Below, piece by piece: positions 28,453 to 44,751 of a DNA stretch of 64,000 bases. The DNA comes from Acidimicrobiia bacterium (GTDB lineage: Bacteria > Actinomycetota > Acidimicrobiia > Spongiisociales > ZC4RG35), in assembly GCA_026002975.1 (NCBI GenBank), contig BPGJ01000003.1:80552-144551 (forward strand). The letters run 5' to 3'. A program made the translations under genes and the position numbers. The notes beneath the pieces are model-generated. The model was not told the origin of the DNA and ran no database searches. It worked only from the letters and a program-made list of their open reading frames with translations. How positions within the stretch are numbered: position 1 is the first letter of the stretch; each line of letters starts with the position of its first letter.

Positions 28453-28458
28453 GCGGTG

Positions 28459-28540
28459 CCGGCTGGGGGGGTGCTCACCGCTCCCCCCAGTCGTAGGTCT
28501 GCTTGACCAGCCGGAGATAGCCGTAAATCTCGGAGGACAC
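28459..28540. repeat. copy 1 of 3 of the lrp 3'-end + GC hairpin repeat (diverged)
   Basis: Minus-strand reading gives ..VSSEIYGYLRLVKQTYDWGER*, against the native Lrp end VSSEVFSYLRLVKQTYDWGAR*. Contains the G7/C6 hairpin directly after the potD stop. Confidence 0.85.
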
Positions 28541-28606
28541 CGCGTTCTTGGCCTCGGCTGAAGATATGGCACACACGCCTGTCGAGACTTGAGGCGGTTT
28601 CGGGCG

Positions 28607-29677
28607 TCAGGGAACCCGTAGTACCCGGACTGGATCGCGGAAGGCAGCCACTACTGCGGGTGGGAGGGCGGCCGCCACTGCGGTGAGGACGGCGAGGACA
28701 GCGATAGCCAGACCGAAGCGTGGCTCGGGAGGCAACCCGGTTATCCGGTAGAGGGCCAGCCAGGCGCCTGTTGACCCGATTCCGGCCCCGAGTGTGGCGG
28801 AGAGACTGGTTTGGAGGCACACCAGGGTGACGATGGCGGGTCGGGATGCTCCCAGGGCGCGGCGGCGGCCGAAGTCGCGTCGTCTTCCGCTCACCGCCCC
28901 GTAGACGTTCAACCCGGTGAGAACCAGCCCGGCGGCCAGGACCGCGGTGATCAGGTTGCGTCCGAACCGTCCCAGTTCGCCCTGCACGGCCGCTCTCACC
29001 TGCGCCAACGCCTCCGAGGTCTCTATGGCTACGGCGGTGGGATCGGCGGGAGCGAGGACCATGAGGGCGGCGTCGGCGACTTTTCCCACCAGGGAGGGGC
29101 GCTCCACCAGGATGTGGATCGACCGCAGCTGGGTGGCCGGGGCGGTGAGGAGGCTCCGGTTGAGGAAGGCGAGGGGGTCGTCGGCGGTGAAAGAGCCCAC
29201 GATGGCGACATCGCCCTGGTTGGTCACCCCTCCGCCGAAGGGCAACTCGAGTCCCAGGGTTTGGGCGGCTTCGGGTCCGACCAGGGCCCGGCCTGGTCCC
29301 ATGGCGGCGCCGTCGGTGTGGATTTGGGGAGGAAGGTCCCCGTAGATGGCCCGCATCGCAGCCGGGTCGCCTCCCGGGTTTCCCGCCGGGCGTACGTCGG
29401 TGGTCGGTCCCAGACCGATCACCCATTCCACCCCGGCGATCCTGGTGATCCGGTCCACGGCTTCGGTGGTGAGGCCGGCGGCTCCGTTGGTGTCGGAGAT
29501 GACAATCGACCTGGTGCCCGCCTCGTCGATCCTGGCCAACACCTGTTGTTCCGCCTGTACGGTCTGACCGGTGGTGGAGAGGATGACGGCACACACCCCG
29601 GCGACGATGAGAGCGGTCACCGCTGAGCTCACCGGCTGGGCCACCGCCGAACGCAGCGCCTCCAACACCAGCTTCAC
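28607..29677 (-). CDS. FtsX/MacB-type ABC permease, copy 1
   Basis: GTG start at 29677 overlaps the ATPase stop (GTGA). N-terminal TM, ~200-aa extracytoplasmic domain, then 3 C-terminal TM helices. The ORF-track N-terminal extension is Arg/Pro-rich junk. Confidence 0.8.
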   Translation of the reverse strand: MKLVLEALRSAVAQPVSSAVTALIVAGVCAVILSTTGQTVQAEQQVLARIDEAGTRSIVISDTNGAAGLTTEAVDRITRIAGVEWVIGLGPTTDVRPAGNPGGDPAAMRAIYGDLPPQIHTDGAAMGPGRALVGPEAAQTLGLELPFGGGVTNQGDVAIVGSFTADDPLAFLNRSLLTAPATQLRSIHILVERPSLVGKVADAALMVLAPADPTAVAIETSEALAQVRAAVQGELGRFGRNLITAVLAAGLVLTGLNVYGAVSGRRRDFGRRRALGASRPAIVTLVCLQTSLSATLGAGIGSTGAWLALYRITGLPPEPRFGLAIAVLAVLTAVAAALPPAVVAAFRDPVRVLRVP

Positions 29678-30306
29678 AGTTCTAGCACCTCGTCGCAGAC
29701 CCCGACGATGTCGGGGTCGTGGGTGGCGATGATCACTGTCCGTTGCTCGCCGGCCAGTTCGGCGAGGGTGTCCACTACGAGCTGGGAGGTGCGGACGTCC
29801 AGGTTTCCTGTGGGCTCGTCGGCGAGGATCAGGTCGGGTCGGGCCAGCAGGGCACGGCATAGGGCGATCCGCTGTGCCTGACCACCCGACACCTCCCCCG
29901 GCTTGTGGTCGGCACGCAAAGCAACCTCGAATCTCTCCATCAGCTTTCGAGCCCGCCGCACCGCCTCACCTCGTGGGATGTCGTTGTAGAGGTGGGATTC
30001 GACGATGTTGTCGAGGACGGTGCGGGTGGGGTCCAGGGCAGCGTCCTGGAACACGAACCCCACCCTGGTCGCCCGGAAGCGAGACTTTCGCCCATCCGAA
30101 AGCCTGCCCAGGTCGACATCACCAGCCCGCACCGCTCCCGACCAGGGTGTGAGCAGCAGCCCGATCAGGTAGAGGAGGGTCGACTTGCCCCTCCCCGACG
30201 GGCCGGTGACCGCCGTCATCGCCCCCGGGGTGAAACGCCAGGTGAGGTCGGAGATGATGGGTTCGTCGCGCCGGTATCCGAACCAGACCGAGTCGAGGGT
30301 GATCAT
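29674..30306 (-). CDS. ABC transporter ATP-binding protein (MacB/LolD-like), copy 1
   Basis: 210 aa. Walker A GPSGRGKSTLL, signature VSGGQAQRIALCRAL and Walker B ILADEPTGNLD. Confidence 0.9.
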   Translation of the reverse strand: MITLDSVWFGYRRDEPIISDLTWRFTPGAMTAVTGPSGRGKSTLLYLIGLLLTPWSGAVRAGDVDLGRLSDGRKSRFRATRVGFVFQDAALDPTRTVLDNIVESHLYNDIPRGEAVRRARKLMERFEVALRADHKPGEVSGGQAQRIALCRALLARPDLILADEPTGNLDVRTSQLVVDTLAELAGEQRTVIIATHDPDIVGVCDEVLEL

Positions 30307-31352
30307 CGCTGGGGAAGCAGGATCACCGTGCCCGGCTCGATTCCATCCACCACTGCGATCCCCTGGGCCGACTCTACGATCTCCACCGGCACCTGGGTGC
30401 CGTCAGGACGGGTCACGAAGGGGTGGTTGGCCGGGTCGGTGCCGATCGCAGCCACCGGAACCACCGGGCCGGTGGTGTCGGGGACGACTATCACATCGGC
30501 GCGGAAGCTGGTCCGTCCCTGGAGATCCACCCACCGGGCACAGTCGTCACCACACACCGACCCCCCATCAGCCCCGACCAGGAACAGGTCGAGCTGACCC
30601 GTCTGCGGGCTTTCCACAGCCCGGTCGATAAGAGCATCCCACACACCCCCGGAGTAGTGGACTCGAACCTGGCCAGTCAACGGAACCAGGGCGGCCTGTT
30701 CCACGGCGAGGGGAATCCGGAAAACCGGGTCATCGGGAACGAGGAGGATCGCCGTCTCCCCTCCCCCAACCCTGGCGCCCACACTGAGATCTTCCGCCAC
30801 GGCGATCCGCGCCGGGAGAGCCGGCACGAAGACGAGATCCCCCGCCTCCACCACCCCCGTATCCTCCACTCCCAGGGCTCTCTGCCACACCCGCACCGCG
30901 GTCCGGGTGGCGGTGCCGTACCAGCCATCGGCATCACCCGAGTACAAGCCGAGGTAGGCGAGCAGCCGCTGCAGCTGAGCCACGTCAGCCCCCCGATCCC
31001 GCAGCCGCAAAGACCGGAACATCGGAACCTCACCCTCGGCGACCACCACGGGACGGAGATTCACCGTATACACAACTTCGCCAGGTCCGACCACGTCCCC
31101 GGGCGCGACCTCCACCGAAGTGACCACCCCGGCGGCCGAGTTGAGCCCGGCCGGGACCAGAGACCACTCCGCCACGGCGGTGAAACTAAACGACCGGCCT
31201 ACCGTCCCCACCTCCACGACATATGTGAGAGGGGTCGAATCTTCGGCAAGCGGGTTGGCGGGAGGCTCCAAAGCCACCCGCCCCGCCCAATAGCCGGCTG
31301 CTCCCGTGGCGACGAGCAGAAGGGCCAAGCCGGCGATGCGCAAGAGCCTCAT
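30303..31352 (-). CDS. membrane-fusion/HlyD-like adaptor with peptidoglycan-binding domain, copy 1
   Basis: ATG 31352 overlaps the regulator stop (ATGA). N-terminal TM. PG_binding_1-like GADVAQLQRLLAYLGLYSGDADGWYGTATRTAVRVWQ inserted in a beta-rich adaptor-like protein. Confidence 0.7.
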   Translation of the reverse strand: MRLLRIAGLALLLVATGAAGYWAGRVALEPPANPLAEDSTPLTYVVEVGTVGRSFSFTAVAEWSLVPAGLNSAAGVVTSVEVAPGDVVGPGEVVYTVNLRPVVVAEGEVPMFRSLRLRDRGADVAQLQRLLAYLGLYSGDADGWYGTATRTAVRVWQRALGVEDTGVVEAGDLVFVPALPARIAVAEDLSVGARVGGGETAILLVPDDPVFRIPLAVEQAALVPLTGQVRVHYSGGVWDALIDRAVESPQTGQLDLFLVGADGGSVCGDDCARWVDLQGRTSFRADVIVVPDTTGPVVPVAAIGTDPANHPFVTRPDGTQVPVEIVESAQGIAVVDGIEPGTVILLPQR

Positions 31353-31831
31353 AGCTCCGACAGCTTCGGGAACAGCGGGGCCAGCCGAGTCCAGCGGCAC
31401 TCATGCGTCAGGTGTGCGGCTTCCTTGAGCTCGGCGAGGCGGCGCCGGATCTGTCTTCCCGAGTAGCCGATGAGCTCCGAAGCCTCCTCTGGGCTCACCC
31501 CATTGGCGGCCAGAGCCACAATCCTCCATTCGAGCTCGCGTGCCCCGAGGTCGCTGGGACGGAACAGTGAGTACACCCGACTTCCAGAAGCAATGCTCAC
31601 CAAGTGGCCCACTCCGATCTCCTCTGCCCGCAAGATACCCGCCACGTCCAAGTCGCAAAGGGCCTTGAGAACTGCGGGCAGCCCAGAGGGAATGAACGCC
31701 ACCGGATCGGATGCCATTGCAGCCACCTCGACCCTGTCGGTCACCACAACGTCGGACTCTGCCGGAATGTTGGTGGGCAGCCTGGAGGCGAGGGCGGCGG
31801 CCAGCTCGGGGTTGCGGACGTTGATGATCAC
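31349..31831 (-). CDS. HTH regulator (LuxR/GerE-like C-terminus, unknown N-terminal domain), copy 1
   Basis: GTG 31831 is preceded by AGGAG at 8 nt (alternative GTG at 31840). C-terminal ARELEWRIVALAANGVSPEEASELIGYSGRQIRRRLAELKE resembles a LuxR/sigma-r4 HTH. Confidence 0.55.
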   Translation of the reverse strand: MIINVRNPELAAALASRLPTNIPAESDVVVTDRVEVAAMASDPVAFIPSGLPAVLKALCDLDVAGILRAEEIGVGHLVSIASGSRVYSLFRPSDLGARELEWRIVALAANGVSPEEASELIGYSGRQIRRRLAELKEAAHLTHECRWTRLAPLFPKLSEL

Positions 31832-31874
31832 ATCGCCCACTCCTGCCCCCTTTCCTCGGCGATCGCACGTGATT

Positions 31875-32123
31875 CTATGGGGGGGGGTCGGTTGAAGATG
31901 CCTCGGCCAGCTCGGCCTCCTGATCCGAGTTCGAGCCCGGTCGCAGCCCAGCGTCCCGCTCGACCCGACGCAACCAGCCCCGCAGTGTCTCAGATGCACA
32001 CCCGAACTTCGCGGCGATCGAACAGATCGCCGACCACTCCGAGGGGTACTCCTCTCGATGCTCGACCACCCGGCGAACCGCACGCTCAAGGACCTCCAGC
32101 GGATACCTGATTGTCTTTGCCAT
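31875..32123 (-). pseudogene. IS3-family OrfA (HTH) fragment
   Basis: MAKTIRYPLEVLERAVRRVVEHREEYPSEWSAICSIAAKFGCASETLRGWLRRVERD is typical of IS3/IS911 OrfA. No OrfB follows, and the ORF runs into the G-tract. Confidence 0.6.
31879..31887. repeat. homopolymeric G9 tract (C9 on the operon strand)
   Basis: Read directly: gattctat-ggggggggg-tcggttgaagatg. The equivalent tract in copy 2 is G11. Confidence 0.95.
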
Positions 32124-32170
32124 AGCTCCATCCTCCCAAGGATCAGAGCCTCCGGGAAACCGGGGCGGGT

Positions 32171-32575
32171 TCAGAGGTATCGCTGCCGGGTGGCTGGGTC
32201 GATGCGTTTCAGGGTGTAGGCCCACCAGTTGAAGGTGTCTCTGAGACGGGTGTTGCAGGCTCGACGCATCCGCACCCGGGCGGTCTTGCCTGAAGAGCAG
32301 GCCACCGGTGCTAGGCCGGCTTCGGCGAGGAGAGCGGCCGGGGTGGGGAACCGGTTTCGGTCTTCTCCGATTCAGGTGAGAAGGTTGGCGGCGATCACTG
32401 GGCCGGCTCCTGGGAAGCTGGTGAACAGCTCAGCGTCGGGATGGCGGGCAAACACGGTGGCGATCCGCTCGTCGAATCCTTTGAGTTGTTTGTTGAGCAG
32501 TTCGAGCTGGCCAGCCAGAGCGAGTGCTCCGCAGCTACGCCCGTTGGGCTGGTTCGGATGACGGCTGGTGACCAT
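32171..32575 (-). pseudogene. IS110-family transposase C-terminal fragment with an in-frame stop
   Basis: LFTSFPGAGPVIAANLLT*IGEDRNRFPTPAALLAEAGLAPVACSSGKTARVRMRRACNTRLRDTFNWWAY matches the IS110 C-terminal domain. The N-terminal catalytic part is missing. Confidence 0.6.
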
Positions 32576-33144: not shown

Positions 33145-34515
33145 ATGATTGCAGGTGATCAACCGCAAGCGAAGAGCGAGCATCGGTCCATCATTGCCTG
33201 GTTGATAGCCGGCTTCGTCTTGGGCTTCGCCAGCCTCGGTGTGCTGCTGCAGGGCGGATTCGCCGGCGCCGCGCCCTCTCCAGACCCGACACAATGGGAT
33301 CCGGACGTACACCCGCCATTGTATATCGTACATGAAGCTCGGTCAGTCACGGACGCCGGGAGCATCGTCGACGTGCAAGTTCATGTCGCTTGTGACTTCG
33401 CAGCCCTGCGAACTTCGGAGTGTTCACCCGATGTGACGTTGTGGGCGTCGTGGGGCGGAAGCCCGTATGTCGAAGTGCCGCTAGCTGAGACACGTGTGGA
33501 CTCACTGCAAGTGTGGACCGCCCACTTGCCAGCCAGGCACCCACAATTGGGTTCTCTCAGGTACTACTTCGAAGCGTCGCACCGCGCTTTAGGCGAGCCA
33601 GTCCGCTCCCCTATCTCCGGGGTCTATGAACCTGCAGTGTTCGATTCGTTCGTTGCGGTACCACTCGATGCCCCCACATTCGTGGAACCGGAGATTGTCT
33701 TGGAAGCCCCATGGGGAACCGGTCCAACCGAGATCGGGCTGGAAGATGGCTCTGAACAAGCAACAGTTGGGCCCGACGCCTTCGCTTACGCGGAGGACGG
33801 TACCCTGGCGCTGCTCGACCAGGTGAATGGTCGTGTCGTTACGGTTAGCCCGGAAGGAGTATGGACGACGTTTGACGCGCCGTTAAAGGGCGTAGGGGAC
33901 GTCGCGTTCAGCGGATCAAGCATACTAGTGCTTGACCTAGTCGGGGAGACCCAAGGACTTTCTCGTGTCCGGATCCCGCAGATCCTGAAGTACGACAGAG
34001 AAGGTTCGCTATTGGCGAAAGCTCCAGTGTTTGCAATGGAGCCCCGCAGGTTGCTCGCATCAGGTGCCGTAGTCGACGAATCGTCGAACTCACTGGTCTA
34101 CCCATTCGACGGCACCGCTGCCCGATCCCGATCTGAGCAGCGAGCAACGAGAAAGCCACACTCGTTCCGCGTTCAGGTCGTGTCCGACCAAGTAGCGTGG
34201 CTGGCAGATCTCGGCACTGACACTGCCTTCGAAGTCGATGCGACAACTGGTGAGCTCGGCGCAATTCCGGAGTTCACGCGTCTAGGCGATTCGTATCTCG
34301 TGGTTTTCGACCAGCCAAACACTTTTCGCATTGTCTGGTTCGACTCGAACGGCACTGTCGAGCGAGATGTGACGGTCGCCAACGAACGACATTCCGTATT
34401 CCTCCCGAAGGGGAGAGTCGCCGTGACTTCGAGGGGTGACGTTCTCATCTTGAACTCCGACGAGGATGGGATATCCATTATGCGTGTCCCAGGACCGAGG
34501 GGAGGTAAGTCATGA
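33145..34515 (+). CDS. membrane-anchored extracytoplasmic protein, unknown function (cargo A1)
   Basis: GAAGGAG RBS 5 nt before the ATG. N-terminal TM (IIAWLIAGFVLGFASLGVLL). The C-terminal half has repeated beta-strand-like segments and shares a GP..A...DG....LD....RV motif with cargo A5. Confidence 0.65.
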   Translation: MIAGDQPQAKSEHRSIIAWLIAGFVLGFASLGVLLQGGFAGAAPSPDPTQWDPDVHPPLYIVHEARSVTDAGSIVDVQVHVACDFAALRTSECSPDVTLWASWGGSPYVEVPLAETRVDSLQVWTAHLPARHPQLGSLRYYFEASHRALGEPVRSPISGVYEPAVFDSFVAVPLDAPTFVEPEIVLEAPWGTGPTEIGLEDGSEQATVGPDAFAYAEDGTLALLDQVNGRVVTVSPEGVWTTFDAPLKGVGDVAFSGSSILVLDLVGETQGLSRVRIPQILKYDREGSLLAKAPVFAMEPRRLLASGAVVDESSNSLVYPFDGTAARSRSEQRATRKPHSFRVQVVSDQVAWLADLGTDTAFEVDATTGELGAIPEFTRLGDSYLVVFDQPNTFRIVWFDSNGTVERDVTVANERHSVFLPKGRVAVTSRGDVLILNSDEDGISIMRVPGPRGGKS

Positions 34516-35129
34516 AATCTCGGGTCGCGATCTTGACCGGCGGAGTGCTACTGGGGATGGGAGTCGCCCTCTTGGTCTCGAAACCAGTGGAAGCTGGGTA
34601 CTCCATCACATGTTGGACCCGTAGTAACGCCGTCAGTTACTCGTACACTGCTCTGCACGAAGGATACGAGTGGGGAGGCGGGTGGTGGACCGACAACAAC
34701 TACGACGACACGCCGAGCTGCCCTACAGATGGCGGGTCTGGCTGTGAAGGTCCTGATTGCTCCGGGCTCGTATTCAAATCCTGGGCGATGGTGAACTCGT
34801 GGGGCAGCACTGGCAAGTACTACTGGTATGCCGGTGACAACGTACACGGGCCATACTCATCGACCTCTTTCCGAGACGGCTGTGGCGGGGCTTGCTACGA
34901 CGTTTGCACCCGGCCCTGCGGGTCAGGTTCATATTCACTCACGATCCCGATGGATGCATTCGCAAAGAGTGGTCACATTGGCCTAATCTGGTCGGAAGGG
35001 TCCGACGGTTACGACGATATCCTTGAGGCGCACTCGAATAACGCTGGCGTTATTCTTTCCGAACGCTCGTACCGGCTCTCCAGCTCTTATGACGGAGTAC
35101 GTAGAAAGAACTGGAGCACTAGCTGTTGA
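34512..35129 (+). CDS. secreted NlpC/P60-like cysteine peptidase with Cys-rich N-terminal extension (cargo A2)
   Basis: ATGA overlap with A1. Signal peptide ending VEA. Catalytic-type motifs GPDCSGLVFKSW, SGHIGLIW and LEAHS in the NlpC/P60 Cys...His...His order. Confidence 0.6.
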   Translation: MKSRVAILTGGVLLGMGVALLVSKPVEAGYSITCWTRSNAVSYSYTALHEGYEWGGGWWTDNNYDDTPSCPTDGGSGCEGPDCSGLVFKSWAMVNSWGSTGKYYWYAGDNVHGPYSSTSFRDGCGGACYDVCTRPCGSGSYSLTIPMDAFAKSGHIGLIWSEGSDGYDDILEAHSNNAGVILSERSYRLSSSYDGVRRKNWSTSC

Positions 35130-35188
35130 AGAAGGGAGGTCTGAAGAGAGGCCAGAGAAGGGAGAAGAGTCGACATACTATTGGATGA

Positions 35189-35587
35189 GTGACCGCCAAG
35201 GATGGAGGTACTAAGATGCGACGAGAGATCGACAGGACGGGTGGATTATTCACGAAAGACGTTGCACAGAACAGGCTCCGGCAACGACTTGTCGCCGGGC
35301 TTATCCTCGTATTCTTAGTGGTACTTGCTTTCGCGCCAGCTGCTTTCGCCTACGGATACCGATCGGGCTCCTCGAGCTGCCCGTACGGTAAACAGGTGAG
35401 AATCGTGTCCCGGACAACGATGAACTACAAGCACTACTGGGAGTCGGGCCTTGCCGAAGACTGGTTTGGGGATAGCAGTCCCCACTGGGCCTACACGAAG
35501 ACGTGGGAGCAGAGCACCGATTGGACCGTGACCACAGACGGTGCCCTGTACAATGCATACACCGACTGCGTCTATATGCCTGTGTGA
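35189..35587 (+). CDS. small secreted protein (cargo A3); alternative start at 35216
   Basis: TM/signal (LVAGLILVFLVVLAFAPAAFA), then a ~85-aa mature part with 2 Cys ending WTVTTDGALYNAYTDCVYMPV. Its 3' 113 bp recur at 44411..44523. Confidence 0.55.
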   Translation: MTAKDGGTKMRREIDRTGGLFTKDVAQNRLRQRLVAGLILVFLVVLAFAPAAFAYGYRSGSSSCPYGKQVRIVSRTTMNYKHYWESGLAEDWFGDSSPHWAYTKTWEQSTDWTVTTDGALYNAYTDCVYMPV

Positions 35588-36300
35588 GAGCCGTTGTGCG
35601 ACACCCCTCGATGCTGATAGCGGCTGCTCTCTTGATGCTGATCTCTGCGTGTGCAGGCGAGACGGAGACGTCTACTACCGCTCCAGGGTCTTCGACCCTT
35701 TCTACCCTGGTTGGAGCCACTGAGAGCCCCTCGAAGTCGCCGGCTGCCGGCCTGTCGGCGGGCCAGGAGGAGCCGTCCGATACGGCGGGGGAGGGGGAGC
35801 CGTCCGATACGGGTGGCCTTCAGGGTGGTGGGCCATCCCAGCCGCCGCGGGTGGGTCGTAACTGGACTCCGGACCAGATCAAGCGATTCCTCAAGGCATG
35901 TGTCGAGGCTGAGGGCTTCACTGTGTCTTTGTCCGACACCGGCGCACTGGAGTGGCGCGGACCGGCGGAACAGCGTGAGGCAGCCAGCGCAGCCTTCGCC
36001 CGATGTCGAGAGCAGCTGCCTGTTTCTGTGCGCACCTATCACCCACCAACGGAGGAGGAGATCCGCGGTTGGTACGACGTCTTCCTCGAGGTGGCAGCGT
36101 GTCTTGAACGGGAAGGCTACGAGGTTCCGCCGCCACCGTCGATCGACTCGTTCGTCGAGTCGCAGGGATCCAACTGGCATCCTTATGACCTGGTGGTGGC
36201 GGATCCGACCCTGCCGTGGGGGGAGTGGGTGCGGCTGAACGAAGTGTGCCCCCAGGGCGGGGTCGAGGGCACTTCCACCGGAGACGATCATGCGGACTGA
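35584..36300 (+). CDS. lipoprotein, unknown function (cargo A4), paralogue of 44752..45474
   Basis: GTG overlaps the A3 stop (GTGA); alternative starts at 35596 and 35611. Lipobox LMLISAC, low-complexity linker, and a C-terminal Cys-containing domain (ACLEREGYEVPPPPSIDSFVE). Confidence 0.6.
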   Translation: MRAVVRHPSMLIAAALLMLISACAGETETSTTAPGSSTLSTLVGATESPSKSPAAGLSAGQEEPSDTAGEGEPSDTGGLQGGGPSQPPRVGRNWTPDQIKRFLKACVEAEGFTVSLSDTGALEWRGPAEQREAASAAFARCREQLPVSVRTYHPPTEEEIRGWYDVFLEVAACLEREGYEVPPPPSIDSFVESQGSNWHPYDLVVADPTLPWGEWVRLNEVCPQGGVEGTSTGDDHAD

Positions 36301-37387
36301 TCACTGTTGGCGGCACAGGGTGCTCGCGGTGGCGGTCCTGGCGGCTGCATGCACGGGATCGGCAGGCGACGTCCGCGAGGTATCGGACACTGCGACCACC
36401 GCCGTCGAGACTGCGGGAGTGTCGACGACCGTTCCCGAGGTCTCGGGGCCTGCCACATCGACCTCTACGACCTCGATCGTTGACGATTCCACGTCTGGAT
36501 CTGCGGAGCCGGTGGTGCAGGAGGCGGTGGTGGAGTTGACGCCTCTGGTCGCGGCTGAGGAGCTGGATGTGTGGGAGCACGTCTTGACGCTCGGGTACGG
36601 TCCGGGGCGCAGCCAGCTCGGTTTCGATCGGTTCGGTCCCGAGTACGCGACGGTGGGGCGTGATGGGGTGTGGTGGGTGTTGGACACCATGAAGAAGCGG
36701 GTCGCGAGGTTCGACGCCGAAGGCAGGTTCATCGACGACATCCCGGTCGAGCGCCCTGGGCAATTTCCGTTTCTGTTGGACGACGGGACATTTCTGGCGT
36801 TTGGCTACGACGAACTGGTGGTCGTGCGTCGCGGTCTGGTCTCTACCCGCAGGCTCGACGAGTCGTTTTCGCCGTTGATGGACGACGGGTCTGTGGTCTT
36901 CGGACGCGGCTACCCCTATCCGGCGCTTTTCTTCTCCGACGGGATCCTCCAGATCGGGAAGACAGAGTGGCTGCGTACCCGTGGCGGTGCCCGTTTCAAG
37001 CTGAGGTCGCATCCGGAGACGCTGGAACTGGAGTGGGACGGCCGACCCGCGACCGTACTGGGGCTGTCCTTTGTCGGTCCAGATGGAGCGGCGGTCACCC
37101 GCGGCGGCTTCGAGGTCGACACAACCCACGGCGACGTCGTCTACCTGCTCGTCGATGGCTACCGGAACGAAGGCGACGAGATGCAGCTGGTGGCGCGTCT
37201 CGTGGCATTCACCTCCGCAGGAGTGGTAGGGACAGTGTCCGTTCCCGGCGTCGTCTTCGACGAAGCGGGTCCCAGCACCCCGGCGCACCTCGTAATCCAC
37301 CCCGCTACCAGTACACCCCATCTTGTGGCCGTAGACGTGACCGGTCTGCACATCTGGCGGCTCGCCGGCCCAGAAGCCCCCAAGTGA
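36290..37387 (+). CDS. lipoprotein, beta-rich, unknown function (cargo A5)
   Basis: 11-nt overlap with A4. Lipobox VLAAAC and a Thr/Ser-rich linker. The body shares motifs with A1 (GYGPGRSQLGFDRFGPEYATVGRDGVWWVLDTMKKRVARFDAEG). Confidence 0.6.
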   Translation: MRTDHCWRHRVLAVAVLAAACTGSAGDVREVSDTATTAVETAGVSTTVPEVSGPATSTSTTSIVDDSTSGSAEPVVQEAVVELTPLVAAEELDVWEHVLTLGYGPGRSQLGFDRFGPEYATVGRDGVWWVLDTMKKRVARFDAEGRFIDDIPVERPGQFPFLLDDGTFLAFGYDELVVVRRGLVSTRRLDESFSPLMDDGSVVFGRGYPYPALFFSDGILQIGKTEWLRTRGGARFKLRSHPETLELEWDGRPATVLGLSFVGPDGAAVTRGGFEVDTTHGDVVYLLVDGYRNEGDEMQLVARLVAFTSAGVVGTVSVPGVVFDEAGPSTPAHLVIHPATSTPHLVAVDVTGLHIWRLAGPEAPK

Positions 37388-37490: not shown

Positions 37491-37650
37491 AACCTGAGGA
37501 GCCCCAACGCCGACCCGGAGGGGCAACGCCTCCCGGCATGGGGTGGTGGTAGGTAGGCGTCCCGTGAAGTGGTGGAAATGGGGGTGGGGGTCCTTGGACA
37601 TGTGGGGCCACCGTGTGACTCTCAGCGAGTTCAAGCAACGAGCTCGAGAC

Positions 37651-38010
37651 ATATGAGTCGGTCGACACCTCCGGCGCGTCCTGGGAAGGCATCCAGATGC
37701 GGTGCCCACAGTCGCCGGCAGGCGGCTACGGCGCCTGGGATCCAGGCGACCCGATCCGCCCCCTCAACTCGCCACGAGAGCAGTGACGGCGAAGACGATC
37801 GGGGTTGTCTCTTCTCCAACAGGTTCGGGACGAAAGGCCAATCGGTGCGCATTGCGTCCCGTTCCCGTCGACCACCGTGGACGACGGGATCTACGCCAAC
37901 ACCCTGCTCCACGGTGGTCATGTGCCCCGGCCGGCTGGGGGGCGCTCACCGCGCCCCCCAGTCGTAGGTCTGTTTGACCAGCCGGAGATAGCTGAAACCT
38001 CGGAGGAGAC
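37651..38010. repeat. ~360-bp direct repeat of 45339..45699 (lipoprotein 3' end, spacer, hairpin, lrp 3' end; copy 2 of the lrp repeat is 37931..38010)
   Basis: Same sequence apart from about 2 substitutions and a 1-nt deletion (gttttc to gtttc). Encodes YESVDTSGASWEGIQMRCPQSPAGGYGAWDPGDPIRPLN(S/P)PREQ*. Confidence 0.9.
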
Positions 38011-38160
38011 CCGATTCGGTCGACCACCACCTGATGTCATGGTCGATCCCGCCGATCCACCCAGTGCAGTGCGGATTCTGAGCCGACCCGTATGCCATGG
38101 GCTTTTTCCTTGTGCTCGTATGACACGCACACCTGTCGGGACTTTGGGCGGTTTCGGGCC

Positions 38161-39231
38161 TCAGGGAACTCGTAGTACCCGGACCGGGTCGCGGAAGGCG
38201 GCCACTACGGCGGGTGGGAGGGCAGCCGCTACTGCGGTGAGGACGGCGAGGACAGCGATAGCCAGACCGAAGCGTGGCTCGGGGGGTAACCCGGTTATCC
38301 GGTAGAGGGCCAGCCAGGCGCCTGTTGACCCGATTCCGGCTCCGAGTATGGCGGAGAGACTGGTTTGGAGGCACACCAGGGTGATGATGGCGGGTCGGGA
38401 TGCTCCCAGGGCGCGGCGGCGGCCGAAGTCGCGTCGTCTTCCGCTCACCGCCCCGTAGACGTTCAACCCGGTGAGAACCAGCCCGGCGGCCAGGACCGCG
38501 GTGATCAGGTTGCGTCCGAACCGTCCCAGTTCGCCCTGCACGGCCGCTCTCACCTGCGCCAACGCCTCCGAGGTCTCTATGGCTACGGCGGTGGGATCGG
38601 CGGGAGCGAGGACCATGAGGGCGGCGTCGGCGACTTTTCCCACCAGGGAGGGGCGCTCCACCAGGATGTGGATCGACCGCAGCTGGGTGGCCGGGGCGGT
38701 GAGGAGGCTCCGGTTGAGGAAGGCGAGGGGGTCGTCGGCGGTGAAGGAGCCCACGATGGCGACATCGCCCTGGTTGGTCACCCCTCCGCCGAAGGGCAAC
38801 TCGAGTCCCAGGGTTTGGGCGGCTTCGGGTCCGACCAGGGCCCGGCCTGGTCCCATGGCGGCGCCGTTGGTGTGGATTTGGGGAGGAAGGTCCCCGTATA
38901 TAGGCCGCATCGCAGCCGGGTCGCCTCCCGGGTTTCCCGCCGGGCGTACGTCGGTGGCCGGTCCCAGACCGATCACCCATTCCACCCCGGCGATCCTGGC
39001 GATGCGGTCCACGGCTTCGGTGGTGAGGCCGGCGGCTCCGTTGGTGTCGGAGATGACAATCGACCTGGTGCCCGCCTCGTCGATCCTGGCCAACACCTGT
39101 CGTTCCGCCTGGACGGTCTGACCGGTGGTGGAGAGGATGACCGCGCACACCCCGGCGACGATGAGAGCTGTCACCGCCGAACTCACCGGCTGGGCCACCG
39201 CCGAACGCAGTGCCTCCAACACCAGCTTCAC
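38161..39231 (-). CDS. FtsX/MacB-type ABC permease, copy 2
   Basis: Same architecture as copy 1, with 7 amino-acid differences by my comparison. Confidence 0.8.
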   Translation of the reverse strand: MKLVLEALRSAVAQPVSSAVTALIVAGVCAVILSTTGQTVQAERQVLARIDEAGTRSIVISDTNGAAGLTTEAVDRIARIAGVEWVIGLGPATDVRPAGNPGGDPAAMRPIYGDLPPQIHTNGAAMGPGRALVGPEAAQTLGLELPFGGGVTNQGDVAIVGSFTADDPLAFLNRSLLTAPATQLRSIHILVERPSLVGKVADAALMVLAPADPTAVAIETSEALAQVRAAVQGELGRFGRNLITAVLAAGLVLTGLNVYGAVSGRRRDFGRRRALGASRPAIITLVCLQTSLSAILGAGIGSTGAWLALYRITGLPPEPRFGLAIAVLAVLTAVAAALPPAVVAAFRDPVRVLRVP

Positions 39232-39860
39232 AGTTCCAGCACCTCGTCGCAGACCCCGACGATGTCGGGGTCGTGGGTGGCGATGATCACTGTCCGTTGC
39301 TCGCCGGCCAGTTCGGCGAGGGTGTCCACTACGAGCTGGGAGGTGCGGACGTCCAGGTTTCCTGTGGGCTCGTCGGCGAGGATCAGATCGGGTCGGGCCA
39401 GCAGGGCACGGCATAGGGCGATCCGCTGTGCCTGACCACCCGACACCTCCCCCGGCTTGTGGTCGGCACGCAAAGCAACTTCGAATCTCTCCATCAGCTC
39501 TCGAGCCCGCCGCACCGCCTCACCTCGTGGGATGTCGTTGTAGAGGTGGGATTCGACGATGTTGTCGAGGACGGTGCGGGTGGGGTCCAGGGCAGCGTCC
39601 TGGAACACGAACCCCACCCTGGTCGCCCGGAAGCGAGACTTTCGCCCATCCGAGAGCCCACCCAGGTCGACATCACCAGCCCGCACCGCTCCCGACCACG
39701 GTGTGAGCAGCAGCCCGATCAGGTAGAGGAGGGTCGACTTGCCCCTCCCCGACGGGCCGGTGACCGCCGTCATCGCCCCCGGGGTGAAACGCCAGGTGAG
39801 GTCGGAGATGATGGGTTCGTCGCGCCGGTATCCGAACCAGACCGAGTCGAGGGTGATCAT
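39228..39860 (-). CDS. ABC transporter ATP-binding protein, copy 2
   Basis: 210 aa, with 2 amino-acid differences from copy 1 (R/G and K/E). Confidence 0.9.
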   Translation of the reverse strand: MITLDSVWFGYRRDEPIISDLTWRFTPGAMTAVTGPSGRGKSTLLYLIGLLLTPWSGAVRAGDVDLGGLSDGRKSRFRATRVGFVFQDAALDPTRTVLDNIVESHLYNDIPRGEAVRRARELMERFEVALRADHKPGEVSGGQAQRIALCRALLARPDLILADEPTGNLDVRTSQLVVDTLAELAGEQRTVIIATHDPDIVGVCDEVLEL

Positions 39861-40906
39861 CGCTGCGGAAGCAGGATCACCGTGCCCGGCTCGATTCCAT
39901 CCACCACTGCGATCCCCTGGGCCGACTCTACGATCTCCACCGGCACCTGGGTGCCGTCAGGACGGGTCACGAAGGGGTGGTTGGCCGGGTCGGTGCCGAT
40001 CGCAGCCACCGGAACCACCGGGCCGGTGGTGTCGGGGACGACTATCACATCGGCGCGGAAGCTGGTCCGTCCCTGGAGATCCACCCACCGGGCACAGTCG
40101 TCACCACACACCGATCCCCCATCAGCCCCGACCAGGAACAGGTCGAGCTGACCCGTCTGCGGGCTTTCCACAGCCCGGTCGATAAGAGCATCCCACACAC
40201 CCCCGGAGTAGTGGACTCGAACCTGACCCGTCAGCGGAACCAGGGCGGCCTGTTCCACGGCGAGGGGAATCCGGAAAACCGGGTCATCGGGAACGAGGAG
40301 GATCGCCGTCTCCCCTCCCCCAACCCTGGCGCCCACACTGAGATCTTCCGCCACGGCGATCCGCGCCGGGAGAGCCGGCACGAAGACGAGATCCCCCGCC
40401 TCCACCACCCCCGTATCCTCCACTCCCAGGGCTCTCTGCCACACCCGCACCGCGGTCCGGGTGGCGGTGCCGTACCAGCCATCGGCATCACCGGAGTACA
40501 AGCCGAGGTAGGCGAGCAGCCGCTGCAGCTGAGCCACGTCAGCCCCCCGATCCCGCAGCCGCAAAGACCGGAACATCGGGACCTCACCCTCGGCGACCAC
40601 CACGGGACGGAGATTCACCGTATAGACGGCTTCGCCAGGTCCGACCACGTCCCCGGGCGCGACCTCCACCGAAGTGACCACCCCGGCGGCCGAGTTGAGC
40701 CCGGCCGGGACCAGAGACCATTCCGCCACGGCGGTGAAACTAAACGACCGGCCTACCGTCCCCACCTCCACGACATATGTGAGAGGGGTCGAATCTTCGA
40801 CAAGGGGGTTGGCGGGAGGTTCCAAAGCCACCCGCCCCGCCCAATAGCCGGCTGCTCCCGTGGCGACGAGCAGAAGGGCCAAGCCGGCGATGCGCAAGAG
40901 CCTCAT
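39857..40906 (-). CDS. PG-binding membrane-fusion adaptor, copy 2
   Basis: 2 amino-acid differences from copy 1 (A/V and V/A). Confidence 0.7.
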   Translation of the reverse strand: MRLLRIAGLALLLVATGAAGYWAGRVALEPPANPLVEDSTPLTYVVEVGTVGRSFSFTAVAEWSLVPAGLNSAAGVVTSVEVAPGDVVGPGEAVYTVNLRPVVVAEGEVPMFRSLRLRDRGADVAQLQRLLAYLGLYSGDADGWYGTATRTAVRVWQRALGVEDTGVVEAGDLVFVPALPARIAVAEDLSVGARVGGGETAILLVPDDPVFRIPLAVEQAALVPLTGQVRVHYSGGVWDALIDRAVESPQTGQLDLFLVGADGGSVCGDDCARWVDLQGRTSFRADVIVVPDTTGPVVPVAAIGTDPANHPFVTRPDGTQVPVEIVESAQGIAVVDGIEPGTVILLPQR

Positions 40907-41385
40907 AGCTCCGACAGCTTCGGGAACAGCGGGGCCAGCCGAGTCCAGCGGCACTCATGCGTCAGGTGTGCGGCTTCCTTGAGCTCGGCGAGGCGGCGCC
41001 GGATCTGTCTTCCCGAGTAGCCGATGAGCTCCGAAGCCTCCTCTGGGCTCACCCCATTGGCGGCCAGAGCCACAATCCTCCATTCGAGCTCGCGTGCCCC
41101 GAGGTCGCTGGGACGGAACAGTGAGTACACCCGACTTCCAGAAGCAATGCTCACCAAGTGGCCCACTCCGATCTCCTCTGCCCGCAAGATACCCGCCACG
41201 TCCAAGTCACAGAGGGCCTTGAGAACTGCGGGCAGCCCAGAGGGAATGAACGCCACCGGATCGGATGCCATTGCAGCCACCTCGACCCTGTCGGTCACCA
41301 CAACGTCGGACTCTGCCGGAATGTTGGTGGGCAGCCTGGAGGCGAGGGCGGCGGCCAGCTCGGGGTTGCGGACGCTGATGATCAC
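40903..41385 (-). CDS. HTH regulator (LuxR/GerE-like), copy 2
   Basis: GTG at 41385 equals 31831 + 9554. N-terminus is VIISV, against VIINV in copy 1. Confidence 0.55.
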   Translation of the reverse strand: MIISVRNPELAAALASRLPTNIPAESDVVVTDRVEVAAMASDPVAFIPSGLPAVLKALCDLDVAGILRAEEIGVGHLVSIASGSRVYSLFRPSDLGARELEWRIVALAANGVSPEEASELIGYSGRQIRRRLAELKEAAHLTHECRWTRLAPLFPKLSEL

Positions 41386-41431
41386 ACCGCCCACTCCGGC
41401 CCCCTTTCCTCGGCGATCGCACGTGATTTTA

Positions 41432-42813
41432 GGAGACTGCGCGCTGACGTGGGGAGGCGCCTGCCGGTGACAATGCCTGGAAGGTGACCGAAGCCCCTCG
41501 ATACTCGGTGATGAGAAGTCGCCGAGTGAAGGAGGGGCTCCGATGAGTCCGGATGCTATGACGGTACGCCTGCATCTCCGCAGGATTCGTGTGGTGGATG
41601 TGACGGTGGATCTGCCCGAGCGCCTGGAGGTGGTGGTGGAAGACACCCGCCGGGTGGTGCGGTGCCCTCACTGTGGATTCAGGACCACCAGGGTGCATGA
41701 CCGGCGCCGCGTCCGGGTCCGGGATGTGACCTTTGGGGGAAGACCGACGGTGCTGATCTGGCTGCGTCGACGGCTCACCTGTGAGGACTGCTCGGGGCGG
41801 TTCTTGGAGGAGCATCCCGAGTTCGTTCTCGGACGGGTCAGCCACGTGACCCGCCGCCTGGCCCGCACCCTGGTCCGAGATGTCAACCGGCTTCCCATCC
41901 GGGAGCTGTCCCGCCGTTGGGGTCTCGGCTGGCATTTCATCATGGGGCTGGTGGCCTCCTGGTCGGAGTTGGTGGTGGCGGAGCGGCGTCGCCGCCGCTG
42001 CCGGGTCCTCATGGTCGACGAGACCAGCCTGCGTCGTCGCCACCGGTATGTGACGGTGCTGATCAACGGGGAGACCGGGGAGGGCCTGGGGGTGGTCAGA
42101 CACCGAAACAGCCAGGCGTTGTCGGGGTTCTTCGCCTCCCAGGGCCACCGCTGGTGTCGGGGAGTGCGGGTGGTGGTGACCGACGGCTCGGAGGCCTACC
42201 GGGCGGCGATCCGATCCCACTTGGGTCACGCCACTCATGTGGTCGACCGGTTTCATGTGGCTCGCTGGTTCGCCTCCGCCCTCATCGAGGTGCGGCGTAG
42301 GATCCAGCGGATCGGGCCCCACGGTTCTCGGCCTGCCTACGACCCAGACGTGTTCCGATCCCGCTACTTGCAGCTGAGACGAGAGGACCGCCCTCGACGA
42401 GGAAGCGAGGAACCGCCTCGAACCCGTCCTTGCCGCCCACCCCGAGCTGGCTCACGCCTGGACCCTCTACCAGCACCTCCACCGCATCTACCTAGCCGAG
42501 GAAGATGAGCAGGCCAACCAGGCTCTGGGAGACTTCATCGCCGGCTACCGAGACCGCTCCCTCCCCGAGTTCGACCAGGTCATCGGCGCCCTCCTCGACT
42601 GGGGAGACGAGATCTTCGCCTTCCACGACACCGACCGGGCTACCAACGGCCGTCTCGAGGGCACCAACGCCAAGCTGGGTGTGCTCAAGAGGATCGCCTA
42701 CGGGTTCGTCTCCGCCACCAACTTCGGCCACCGAGCCCTCCTCCTCACCCCAGGAGTGGCAACATGAGCAAGCCGAGTGACGAGGGACCCATCCCATGTC
42801 ACCGCGCGGAACC
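41432..42813 (+). mobile_element. ISL3-family insertion sequence (~1.38 kb) with imperfect terminal IRs and a 7-bp target duplication
   Basis: Left end GGAGACTGCGCGCTGACGTGGGGAGG; the reverse complement of the right end is GGTTCCGCGCGGTGACATGGGATGGG. Flanked by gatttta at 41425-41431 and 42814-42820. Copy 1 has the uninterrupted site. Confidence 0.8.
41543..42767 (+). pseudogene. ISL3-family transposase with one frameshift near 42385
   Basis: Zn-ribbon N-terminus (CPHCGFRTTRVHDRR...LTCEDC) and the DDE region (MVDETSLRRRHRYVTVL, VVTDGSEAY) lie in ORF 41543..42508. The C-terminus LDEEARNRLEPVLAAHPEL...TNGRLEGTNAKLGVLKRIAYGF is in the next frame. Confidence 0.8.
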
Positions 42814-42993: not shown

Positions 42994-43866
42994 ATGTGGA
43001 GAGGGAGAACATGGGGGCTCGTCTCCTGGGTGACGGCGCTCTCGATGTTGGTTCCGGGAATTGCGGGAGCAGCCAGCGAATCGGAAGTCGTTCTGGCAGA
43101 GAATCCGGACGTACGGGTCATTCAGAAGGGCGACTGGGTGATCTGGGATTTCACCGAGGAGCTACCGAACCCCGAGACTGTGACTGTCAAGGGGAGCCTG
43201 CTTCCGTCCGGTGAGTGCTACTACGCAAGGTCTGTGACCTCAGACGGGTCAACGATCCCCGGGTATTTCCGGATCTACCGCGAGGTGGCACACAATGCGT
43301 CGGACTGCATTCTCAGACTCGAGGCAGCAAATCTGCCACTCCGAAGACTCGGCGAGTTCGACGGTTCGGAACCTGACAGCGTCTCGGTTTCTGAGAGCTT
43401 CCTAGTGAACTCGCCCATCGAAGCAAGCATGACTGGCGGTGGCGAGCAGTTCGCCGCGACGTCAACAACGTCCACTGCCTGGTTCAAGTCCGTATATGAG
43501 GATCCGATTGAGATCGACGTCAACAGCGTCAAGGTGAATCTCCAGTGGACGTGGAATGGGTCCTGTGTGACTTCGAGCACGAACCACTCGGCAGTGTGGT
43601 ACTGGTTCGAGGGCACAGGCTGGTTCCTGAAGTCGAAGTCGGGAAGCGGCGGCCGGACTTGCTCGTCTGCCTACACGAAGGCGACTGGTGAGTTTTGGAA
43701 TTGGACCTGGGGAGACGACTCCCTCTTGACTTGGACGAAGCACACAGACACGAAGATCAGCGGGCTCGCAAACGGGTCGATCACGGTCTCTTGGAACCTG
43801 ACAAAGGGTGGCGAGGACAGCGGGTTGTTGCACACCGACTTCGTATGCTCTTGGACATCGTGTTGA
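42994..43866 (+). CDS. secreted Trp/Cys-containing protein, unknown function (cargo B1)
   Basis: AGGAGG lies 9 nt before the ATG. Signal peptide (LVSWVTALSMLVPGIAGAAS). Beta-rich, Trp-rich C-terminal half (VNLQWTWNGSC...WYWFEGTGWF...FWNWTWG). No family recognised. Confidence 0.6.
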   Translation: MWRGRTWGLVSWVTALSMLVPGIAGAASESEVVLAENPDVRVIQKGDWVIWDFTEELPNPETVTVKGSLLPSGECYYARSVTSDGSTIPGYFRIYREVAHNASDCILRLEAANLPLRRLGEFDGSEPDSVSVSESFLVNSPIEASMTGGGEQFAATSTTSTAWFKSVYEDPIEIDVNSVKVNLQWTWNGSCVTSSTNHSAVWYWFEGTGWFLKSKSGSGGRTCSSAYTKATGEFWNWTWGDDSLLTWTKHTDTKISGLANGSITVSWNLTKGGEDSGLLHTDFVCSWTSC

Positions 43867-43891
43867 AGGCCAGATAGAGGAGGGTGTGACC

Positions 43892-44353
43892 GTGGATCGC
43901 GAGTTGGGACTTGCCCTTGCCGCCACCGGCGTCGTCGTCGTATTGGCCGAGATCGGGGGACTTGGGACACGATTCCCCAAGTGGATTCAGACGATTGTCA
44001 GGCTCCTCAGCTTTGGAGTCGGTCTGATCCTCTTTGTAGTCGGGGTCTTCGCGGTCGTTGCTGAAACCTTCTCGGGTCCGACTACCGAACCATCGCGGCT
44101 TGTCTGGGCCGTTCCCGTGGTGGTGACGGTTGCTGGAGGTTTGCTCGTGTGGGGATCGGAACGATGGGAGGGTCAACAGGCAGCTTGGCTGCGAAGGAGC
44201 GGCTGGGTTGTGTCGATTGCAGGCGTTTCCCTGACCGCGCTGTCGGATCTCTATCTCCTGGTAGCAATCGTGATGGCTCCAAGCCTGCTGACCTTTTCGT
44301 CGCCTGGTGAAGTGGAATCAGCGGGCCGTCGTGGAAGGGTTACAGCCTCTTAA
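43892..44353 (+). CDS. 4-TM small membrane protein (cargo B2)
   Basis: GTG lies 7 nt after GAGGAGGG. 153 aa with four hydrophobic helices. The ORF-track N-terminal extension overlaps B1. Confidence 0.5.
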   Translation: MDRELGLALAATGVVVVLAEIGGLGTRFPKWIQTIVRLLSFGVGLILFVVGVFAVVAETFSGPTTEPSRLVWAVPVVVTVAGGLLVWGSERWEGQQAAWLRRSGWVVSIAGVSLTALSDLYLLVAIVMAPSLLTFSSPGEVESAGRRGRVTAS

Positions 44354-44410
44354 GGACTTATCGAGACATCGCGAATCCGTGGGGTGGAGCCTTTGACCTG
44401 GAGTCTTGAA

Positions 44411-44681: not shown

Positions 44682-44751
44682 CTGCCCATTCGGCGGGCTG
44701 CGGTGTCGCCAGGCTCAAGCCAGGCGACACCGCGCGTCGTCTCGCTCGACG

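Follow-up and report, generated by a model that had tools for sequence, protein, structure and literature searches.

The stretch analysed here, 64,000 nucleotides (nt) of contig BPGJ01000003.1 from an Acidimicrobiia bacterium, is referred to below as the window. The listing of its open reading frames (ORFs) contains five genes on the forward strand between positions 33145 and 37387, designated A1 to A5, as the initial annotation had described, and sequence searches found homologues elsewhere for each of them. Every one of the five products carries a Sec or lipoprotein signal, in agreement with the envelope targeting originally proposed. Comparison with other genomes divides this block in two. 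Elsewhere, A1, A2 and A5 form a contiguous, overlapping operon (hereafter the trio), and in the window A3 and A4 are lodged between its second and third genes. Genes of the A3/A4 type, and not the trio, recur beside an ATP-binding cassette (ABC) transporter module like the one that adjoins the block, and the island that contains both has been duplicated and recombined at A3/A4 gene ends. The five genes are the following:

33145 to 34515, forward strand: A1, 456 amino acids (aa), with an N-terminal hydrophobic segment, a C83/C93 domain and predicted NHL-type blades at about residues 190-290; first gene of the trio.
34512 to 35129, forward strand: A2, a secreted Cys/His protein of 205 aa with a predicted, divergent NlpC/P60-type fold; second gene of the trio.
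35216 to 35587, forward strand: A3, a 123-aa precursor of a secreted protein of about 78 aa with one Cys near either end; first part of the inserted element.
35596 to 36300, forward strand: A4, a predicted lipoprotein with a LISAC lipobox, a disordered linker, a helical four-Cys domain of about 125 aa and a C-terminal CPQ; second part of the inserted element.
36290 to 37387, forward strand: A5, a predicted DUF7485 lipoprotein of 365 aa with a LAAAC lipobox and an NHL-type region homologous to A1; third gene of the trio.

The starts of A3 and A4 deserve some comment. The longest ORF of A3 begins at 35189, and ATG 35216, which yields the 123-aa precursor, is the start called on an identical public Logan contig. 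The longest ORF of A4 runs from GTG 35503 to 36300, and its lipoprotein signal begins at GTG 35596 or at ATG 35611, the latter being the counterpart of the start called in a relative (locus L085); initiation at GTG 35503 would put 31-36 residues before the signal peptide. These starts affect the overlaps previously reported for the block. A1 and A2 do overlap by 4 nt (ATGA, with GGAGG upstream, read directly), as do A4 and A5 by 11 nt, and the ATG of A1 is preceded at 6 nt by a Shine-Dalgarno sequence (AGGAG). An overlap between A3 and A4, on the other hand, is true solely of the longest A4 ORF; with a start at GTG 35596 or ATG 35611 the spacing is 8-23 nt. Because of this gap, and of the 86 nt that separate A2 from A3, translational coupling of all five genes has to be dismissed: the arrangement is two coupled pairs plus close spacing. 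Promoter and terminator scans gave signals no better than those of shuffled sequence. No RNA family of Rfam was matched, and the PADLOC and PHROGs models found neither an anti-phage defence family nor a phage-derived one.

The low GC content noticed in the initial annotation is clear at third codon positions (GC3), with values of 0.63-0.69 in A1-A3, 0.71 in A4 and 0.77 in A5, compared with 0.84-0.90 in the flanking pot genes; the ABC module lies at 0.74-0.82. This atypical composition, together with remnants of insertion sequences (IS) and duplicated flanks, fits acquisition or rearrangement in this genome and so is compatible with the horizontal origin first suggested. The lipoboxes LISAC of A4 and LAAAC of A5 were also correctly recognised: both fit the pattern [LVI][ASTVI][GAS]C, neither family varies at the lipobox Cys and, by signal peptide and lipobox, A4 and A5 are predicted to be lipoproteins. 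Cys residues are few in four of the five products. A1 has Cys at 83 and 93, A5 at 6 and 21, A4 has four in addition to the lipobox Cys (numbered from ATG 35611), and A3 has exactly two, Cys55 and Cys118, being the small two-Cys secreted protein that it was taken for.

The distribution of the trio was followed by a one-genome-per-species scan, which returned 185 stretches with an A2 relative; 80 loci were fetched and annotated by family hidden Markov models (HMMs), and the counts given below refer to the 79 loci other than the window with enough upstream DNA. A homologue search with A2 returned 144 proteins of about 200-230 aa, for which all source names given are 'hypothetical'; taxa are stated for a few of them (Acidimicrobiia, Actinomycetota, Nocardioidaceae and Herpetosiphonaceae). 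The trio loci span Actinomycetota and Chloroflexota, and their sources are mostly metagenome-assembled genomes of Gaiellaceae, Gaiellales, Thermoleophilia, other Actinomycetota and Acidimicrobiia, with one Nocardioides and one Roseiflexaceae. In 78 of the 79 loci the gene immediately upstream of the A2-family gene belongs to the A1 family, the lone exception being fragmented. The gene downstream of A2 encodes a lipoprotein in 74 of the 79: a DUF7485 protein in 18 and an unrelated Cys-rich protein of about 230 aa in 56; in the remaining 5 no third gene is recognisable. Clear 4-nt overlaps join A1 to A2 in at least 11 loci and A2 to the third gene in at least 10. In the closest loci of Acidimicrobiia type, L006 and L007, the DUF7485 gene directly follows A2 and overlaps it. 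The trio is vertically inherited at a fixed chromosomal site in the Gaiellales-type lineage, since 23 loci share the same flanking metabolic genes (thiolase, aldehyde dehydrogenase, zinc-dependent alcohol dehydrogenase and metallophosphoesterase). A Herpetosiphonaceae locus and a soil contig contain the same trio among unrelated neighbour genes.

Two side observations concern these loci. The lipoprotein of about 230 aa that takes the place of DUF7485 (for example at 10474-11181 of L023) has about six conserved Cys and found no match in Pfam or in the Protein Data Bank (PDB); a relationship with A4 of the window or with DUF7485 was considered and rejected, both proving unrelated on comparison. 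In the Herpetosiphonaceae locus L001 (9207-10627), the A1-type gene is separated from the lipoprotein gene by two tandem A2 paralogues, and among the fetched loci tandem duplication of A2 is limited to this case, with two copies.

These data bear directly on the proposal that the five genes make up a single cargo with ties to the ABC module. The block would then encode one secreted enzyme complex or set of effectors, acquired horizontally and working with the module or exported by it. The proposal has some attraction. The block adjoins the module, which is itself duplicated with a second, different cargo, and the five-gene order is apparently present in close relatives (A1-A2-A3 in L004, A3-A4-A5 in L085). 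Moreover, FtsEX-type transporters activate NlpC/P60 or CHAP hydrolases such as RipC, CwlO and PcsB. However, the A1/A2 pairs found in 78 of the 79 loci have no such module within 10 kb. When the fetched trio loci were searched by tblastn, not one of them matched the module adaptor or FtsX permease, and the module ATPase gave generic distant ABC matches in four, two of which are copies of a single contig. None of the 79 other trio loci contains A3 or A4. The A1-A2-A3-A5 order of L097 lies by an extracytoplasmic function (ECF) sigma factor gene, with no recognisable ABC module in about 8 kb of upstream sequence. In addition, the secondary structure assigned by DSSP to the A2 model contains no long helical segments as an FtsX-binding coiled coil would need, and no dedicated exporter is required for membrane crossing because all five proteins carry Sec or lipoprotein signals. 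A single five-gene set is hence quite unlikely in our judgement, and activation of A2 by the module in the manner of FtsEX-RipC was rejected because the trio lives without such modules in other genomes. As for the expectation that orthologues might turn out to be widespread, without the module and under housekeeping labels, the first part is what was found for A1 and A2 (78 of 79 loci), but the labels are 'hypothetical' throughout.

The part of the block that does recur with the module is the A3-A4 pair. A metagenome scan with the adaptor gave four loci. The module and the loci with A3 or A4 relatives are as follows (percentages compare them with the genes of the window):

28565 to 31877, reverse strand: module copy 1, with a helix-turn-helix (HTH) regulator, a PG_binding_1/HlyD-like adaptor, an ABC ATPase and an FtsX-type permease (Pfam).
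38119 to 41431, reverse strand: module copy 2, with the same gene set, 98% identical to copy 1 (self-BLAST).
L085: A3 (82%), A4 (53%) and A5 (47%).
L097: A1 (44%), A2 (77%), A3 (76%) and A5 (38%), without A4, adjoining an ECF sigma gene and a likely anti-sigma gene.
L086, 254 to 10159: nine A4 paralogues and two A3-like genes adjoining an adaptor/ATPase/FtsX module 61-62% identical to that of the window.
L088: an A3-like gene, an A4-family gene, an adaptor (64% identical), ATPase and FtsX, in this order.
L089: an A3-like gene, an A4-family gene and an adaptor (62% identical), followed by the contig end.
L092/L093, 4367 to 8948 in L092: a module divergent from an A3-like gene with three A4 genes and an A3-like gene with two A4 genes; an ECF sigma gene and a likely anti-sigma gene lie between.
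L094, 2783 to 3457: a distant lipoprotein of the A4 superfamily, solitary, near genes for gyrA, DUF3566 and a PAP2 phosphatase.

The tie to the ABC module thus survives in part: A3/A4 relatives adjoin a module 61-64% identical to that of the window in L086, L088, L089 and L092, and A1, A2 and A5 do not. The A4 arrays of L086 (nine genes) and L092 (five genes) are interspersed with two A3-like genes each, and the ABC module and ECF sigma/likely anti-sigma genes adjoin them. The gene content of L097 (A1-A2-A3-A5, lacking A4) and of L085 (A3-A4-A5) speaks for a composite origin of the block. In three related contigs, A3 occurs inside the trio.

The A4 family is large: exhaustive searching by HMMER, with A4 as query, yielded 968 representative clusters at E<=1e-3. 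Its members, lipoproteins 160-270 aa long, combine a linker that varies with a domain of about 125 aa that has four conserved Cys and CPQ at its end. In the AlphaFold2 (AF2) model of A4, the predicted local distance difference test score (pLDDT) exceeds 90 for residues 92-217, which are mainly helical, and a structural search with this model found no match in the PDB (best E 1.0) or in BFVD. The four-Cys domain is not confined to ABC-linked loci, because the L094 member stands alone near gyrA. A3 matched no family of Pfam or NCBIfam at E<=0.1, and to call it bacteriocin-like is a functional guess from its size, export, disulfide and context.

The module itself gave Pfam matches to ABC_tran (9.3e-28) and FtsX (3.3e-07) and, for the adaptor, to PG_binding_1 (1.1e-13) and weakly to HlyD_3 (0.017). 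An ATPase, an FtsX permease and an HlyD-like adaptor encoded together suggest a tripartite exporter of the MacB type. The best NCBIfam match of the ATPase, below the cut-off, is the ABC subfamily of the lactococcin 972 group. MacAB-type (type VII ABC) tripartite pumps expel extracytoplasmic substrates, for example the enterotoxin STII. The window module shares with MacAB pumps and lactococcin 972 ABC clusters the three components just named, as well as the gene for a small Sec-exported, Cys-bridged protein that adjoins it in five or six loci. Unlike them, its adaptor carries PG_binding_1, A4-family lipoproteins have no counterpart in those systems, and A3 is similar to neither lactococcin 972 nor STII.

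The identity of A2 as an NlpC/P60-like hydrolase was argued from a signal peptide and from a DCSGLV/GHIGL/EAHS triad. The signal peptide is present, with predicted cleavage between VEA and GY. With regard to the triad, D82-C83-S84-G85 and H155 are invariant in a 42-sequence alignment of the A2 family, while the His of EAHS (H174) is not conserved; position 172, in the x-x-E-A strand, is E, N or H across the family (E172 in the window) and fits instead. C83, H155 and E172 are therefore offered as catalytic candidates, E, N and H all being permitted third residues, and the alignment does contain a Cys, a His and a polar third residue in the proper order and conserved across the family. The same alignment shows further invariant residues (H112-G113, Y115, K89, W91, R198 and W201). 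An N-terminal region with six Cys, part of the original description, does not exist as such; the Cys of A2 are at 34, 70, 78, 83 (the catalytic candidate), 124, 128, 132, 136 and 205.

The AF2 model of A2 has a mean pLDDT of 86.3 and a predicted template modelling score (pTM) of 0.81. Its best Foldseek matches are RipB and RipA, at probability 1.0, along with the P60 protein MAP1204, an NlpC/P60 protein of C. innocuum, YkfC-like endopeptidases and CHAP domains; Tse1 and Tae1 rank lower. The top structures have probabilities of 0.84-1.0 and E-values of 3e-3 to 2e-2, and their template modelling (TM) scores reach 0.62-0.64 when normalised by the target (P60 domains of about 125-136 residues) versus 0.43-0.47 by the query. 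Support for a papain-like alpha+beta fold is thus moderate, not strong. As a single sequence against the PDB (phmmer), A2 reached an E of 0.15 with the Cys motif of RipA alone aligned. The NlpC/P60 resemblance consequently holds in structural comparison and not in curated models, and A2 is best described, on the basis of its predicted fold, as a relative of NlpC/P60 at the superfamily level and not as a member of PF00877, since the curated HMMs were unmatched.

RipA and RipB (Rv1477/Rv1478) and other NlpC/P60 D,L-endopeptidases (PF00877) are the closest relatives of A2 with a known function. Like A2, they are secreted papain-like Cys/His proteins with DCSG and G-H-[IV]-G motifs and a third polar residue in an x-x-E-A strand, and they are the best structural matches, the RipA Cys motif also aligning in sequence. 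Unlike that group, A2 is unmatched by PF00877 and NCBIfam models and its family profile finds no PDB sequence; it has long insertions, including a four-Cys cluster between Cys and His; it lacks a coiled-coil, SH3, LysM or other wall-binding domain; and an NHL-type membrane protein is its obligate companion.

A2 could be a papain-like peptidase or acyltransferase acting on something other than peptidoglycan (A3-like proteins, lipoproteins or a wall polymer), with A1 and A5 as substrate-binding propellers. The NlpC/P60 superfamily does include acyltransferases and non-peptidoglycan amidases, and this breadth counts in favour of the idea, as do the family-specific invariant residues beyond the triad, the absence of a peptidoglycan-binding domain among the Pfam and NCBIfam matches of A2, and the presence of A3 inside the trio in the related contigs. 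Nevertheless, the nearest structural matches are all peptidoglycan endopeptidases or amidases, and A3 cannot be a general substrate of A2 because it is missing from the 79 other trio loci. We regard a non-peptidoglycan substrate as very unlikely.

A1 and A5, the two partners of A2 in the trio, share a block of about 100 residues, which the initial annotation had recognised as paralogous and as suggestive of propeller-like folds. The relationship is detected by BLASTP (E 0.002) and by comparison of the family profiles with hhalign (98.8%, E 9e-17), and the homology over this NHL-type block is real. The A1-family profile matched, in the PDB, Pizza (4.5e-27), the PknD sensor 1RWI (1.4e-13) and the NHL domain of TRIM71 (about 5e-9); the A5/DUF7485-family profile matched the NHL domain of Thin (1.4e-20) and TRIM71 (about 1e-16). 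The Pfam NHL model was matched by 4 of 32 aligned A1-family proteins, the A1 of the window not being among these four. A5 matches Pfam PF24303 (DUF7485) with an E of 2.6e-30 and 106.3 bits against a cut-off of 27, over positions 3-282 of the 284-position profile, and the family is matched by 17 of 19 proteins when A5 is taken together with the 18 lipoproteins encoded downstream of A2 in other loci. A1 has, besides the NHL-type region at about residues 190-290, a domain with two conserved Cys (C83 and C93) and a single N-terminal hydrophobic segment at about residues 16-39; the transmembrane anchoring first assigned to it is therefore half sustained, as this segment may be either an anchor or a cleaved signal. 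A complete propeller of five or six tandem blades in A1 and A5 is plausible.

The PknD sensor (from which the Pizza designs derive), TRIM71 and Thin are accordingly the proteins whose blades the two family profiles recognise. PknD resembles A1 and A5 also in being extracytoplasmic and membrane-tethered in an actinobacterium. Unlike these proteins, A1 and A5 show about 1.5 recognisable blades, no repeat periodicity and no kinase domain. A different kind of parallel is given by wall hydrolases controlled by partner proteins, such as FtsEX-RipC/CwlO/PcsB, NlpI-MepS and SteAB-RipC. Like the trio, these systems combine a secreted NlpC/P60 or CHAP enzyme with membrane-tethered partners; unlike them, the trio has an NHL-type single-pass protein and a lipoprotein in place of an ABC transporter, a tetratricopeptide repeat (TPR) lipoprotein or a coiled-coil protein, and its nearby ABC module is not linked to it in other genomes.

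The main rival explanation for the trio is that it encodes a toxin and its immunity protein. A2 would then be a Sec-secreted antibacterial wall degrader, the downstream lipoprotein (A5, or elsewhere the protein of about 230 aa) would confer immunity at the membrane of the producer, and A1 would act as a second tether or inhibitor. NlpC/P60 amidases do serve as antibacterial effectors, Tse1 and Tae1 are among the distant structural matches of A2, and Tsi1, the immunity protein of Tse1, is reportedly an all-beta, propeller-like periplasmic protein, which may be counted in favour. Like the trio, the Tse1-Tsi1 and Tae-Tai pairs of type VI secretion place an NlpC/P60-type amidase beside an envelope-located, beta-rich partner. 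The gene that overlaps A2 downstream is drawn from two unrelated families, as immunity genes often are, and the trio genes of the window have atypical GC3 and lie in a rearranged island. Several features point the other way. The 23 Gaiellales-type loci are syntenic amid metabolic genes; no locus contains multi-copy arrays or orphan immunity genes, A2 being in tandem in L001 only; and no secretion-system, Rhs, LXG or WXG marker appears in the loci with Pfam-annotated flanks. Furthermore, the universal partner of A2 is the upstream A1 and not the lipoprotein, and the third gene is unrecognised in five loci. The trio also differs from Tse1-Tsi1 and Tae-Tai in this secretion-free, syntenic context and in the extra, invariant A1. 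On this evidence, a toxin-immunity function for the trio seems unlikely.

The interpretation that we favour, to which we give about an even chance of being right, is that the block is a nested composite in which the conserved A1-A2-A5 trio encodes a membrane-tethered peptidase complex and the inserted A3-A4 element a bacteriocin-like protein with its partner. A2 would be an active papain-like Cys/His hydrolase that cuts the stem peptides of peptidoglycan or a related amide in the envelope. Membrane-anchored A1 and lipid-anchored A5 would join it in a stoichiometric complex, and these two proteins might hold the enzyme against the outside of the membrane while gating or targeting its action, by analogy with the partner-controlled NlpC/P60 enzymes. 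A3, in turn, could be a disulfide-bonded secreted factor of bacteriocin-like nature and A4 its membrane-tethered partner or immunity protein. After Sec export, A3 might be handled by the MacB-type pump, being either moved across the wall or kept off the producer.

It is important to note that several observations weigh against this composite interpretation. Regarding A2, neither Pfam nor NCBIfam contains a family that it matches at E<=0.1, so that the NlpC/P60 models (PF00877) are unmatched; its family profile finds nothing among PDB sequences at E<=1; and its best Foldseek E-values are no better than about 3e-3, with the low query-normalised TM scores given above. A single NHL-type region of about 60-100 residues is detectable in each of A1 and A5 (at about positions 209-270 of the A1 profile), and self-comparison of the two proteins shows no internal repeats. 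The origin of the third gene from two unrelated families is a pattern also compatible with an immunity role. As for the inserted pair, A3 is without similarity to any known bacteriocin family of Pfam or NCBIfam, and the Pfam matches listed up to E 10, for A3 as well as for its relatives, include no bacteriocin family. The association of A3/A4 genes with the module is based on five or six loci, and the A4 superfamily has solitary members in housekeeping surroundings, such as L094 by gyrA.

A bolder version of the composite interpretation, which we find doubtful, is that two undescribed envelope systems are nested at this locus. One would be a new papain-like wall hydrolase family, active solely in complex with two membrane-tethered partners of NHL type and serving wall remodelling throughout Gaiellales, Thermoleophilia, Acidimicrobiia and some Chloroflexota. 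The other would be a polymorphic and recombining system of bacteriocin, immunity and export, in which a disulfide-bridged secreted protein of about 78 aa (A3 family) goes with arrays of A4-family lipoproteins, whose fold is unmatched in the PDB or BFVD, and with a peptidoglycan-spanning pump of the MacB type.

In the literature, DUF7485 was found in no paper, and neither was a combination of NlpC/P60 with NHL repeats; nothing relevant emerged on this type of adaptor/FtsX module, nor any paper on this gene combination. The trio is a strictly conserved and wholly unannotated three-gene operon, and the A2 relatives come mostly from uncultured soil Actinomycetota. If A2 were a wall hydrolase gated by NHL-type partners, this would represent a new control logic for autolysins and would give a testable role to DUF7485 and to two families without a Pfam entry. 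The A3/A4/ABC loci, with their A4 arrays and scars, resemble a diversifying antagonism or signalling system, and such systems are nearly unknown in these lineages; the A4 domain is a confidently modelled fold unmatched among solved or viral structures. Adjacency in a single rearranged island had hinted at one cargo, and the comparison across genomes splits this cargo in two.

The region from 28.5 to 45.7 kb is a recently duplicated, IS-scarred island. Each 3.3-kb copy of the module is followed by a different cargo on the forward strand, cargo A at 33145-37387 and cargo B at 42994-45474. The 3.3-kb repeat reflects either segmental duplication in the very recent past or a point at which the assembly needs checking. 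Both units are closed by a 375-bp repeat (37650-38024 and 45338-45711, 98% identical by self-BLAST), of which an 84-bp piece is also found at 28458-28541. The features that record recombination are these:

37652 to 37786, forward strand: 3' scar of a B4-like gene within the 375-bp repeat, read as ...YESVDTSGASWEGIQMRCPQSP...REQ and a stop in six-frame translation.
44411 to 44681, forward strand: two start-less 3' fragments of A3-family genes, just upstream of B4.
44752 to 45474, forward strand: B4, the A4-family lipoprotein of the second unit.

The relationship between A4 and its paralogue B4 is clear (BLASTP E 2e-14; HMM E 2e-62 for B4). As the 375-bp repeat opens with the 44 final codons of a B4-like gene, the duplication junction lies inside a lipoprotein gene of the A4 family. 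The first of the A3-family fragments (44411-44523, 113 bp) is 96% identical to the 3' end of A3; the second has diverged and ends in ...TYAFCWGT and a stop. Both look like gene ends that recombination has displaced, as happens in loci of polymorphic toxins or bacteriocins.

The island contains further remnants. The FtsX gene is followed, a short way downstream, by a 50-codon ORF on the reverse strand (37946-38098), and 3' ends related to that of this ORF are present at 28458-28541 and 45618-45700; all three copies of the 84-bp repeat preserve its last 20 or so codons (...YLRLVKQTYDWG.R and a stop). It found no Pfam match and no relatives among the fetched loci; it may be what is left of a gene, or may encode a small peptide. 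The interval between module copy 1 and A1 contains an HTH fragment (31875-32225) and, by eye and unconfirmed by Pfam, an IS110-like transposase fragment (32372-32575). An ISL3-family transposase ORF (41543-42508) separates module copy 2 from cargo B. At 42994-44353, this second cargo contains B1, a secreted protein of 290 aa that has no family match and no similarity to A2, and then B2, a membrane protein of 181 aa with a weak match (E 4.9e-4) to NrsF-like (anti-sigma-F) proteins. Outside the island, two ABC ATPase genes of the spermidine/putrescine-importer type (24607-25218 and 52004-52615) share about 69% DNA identity and are ordinary paralogues.

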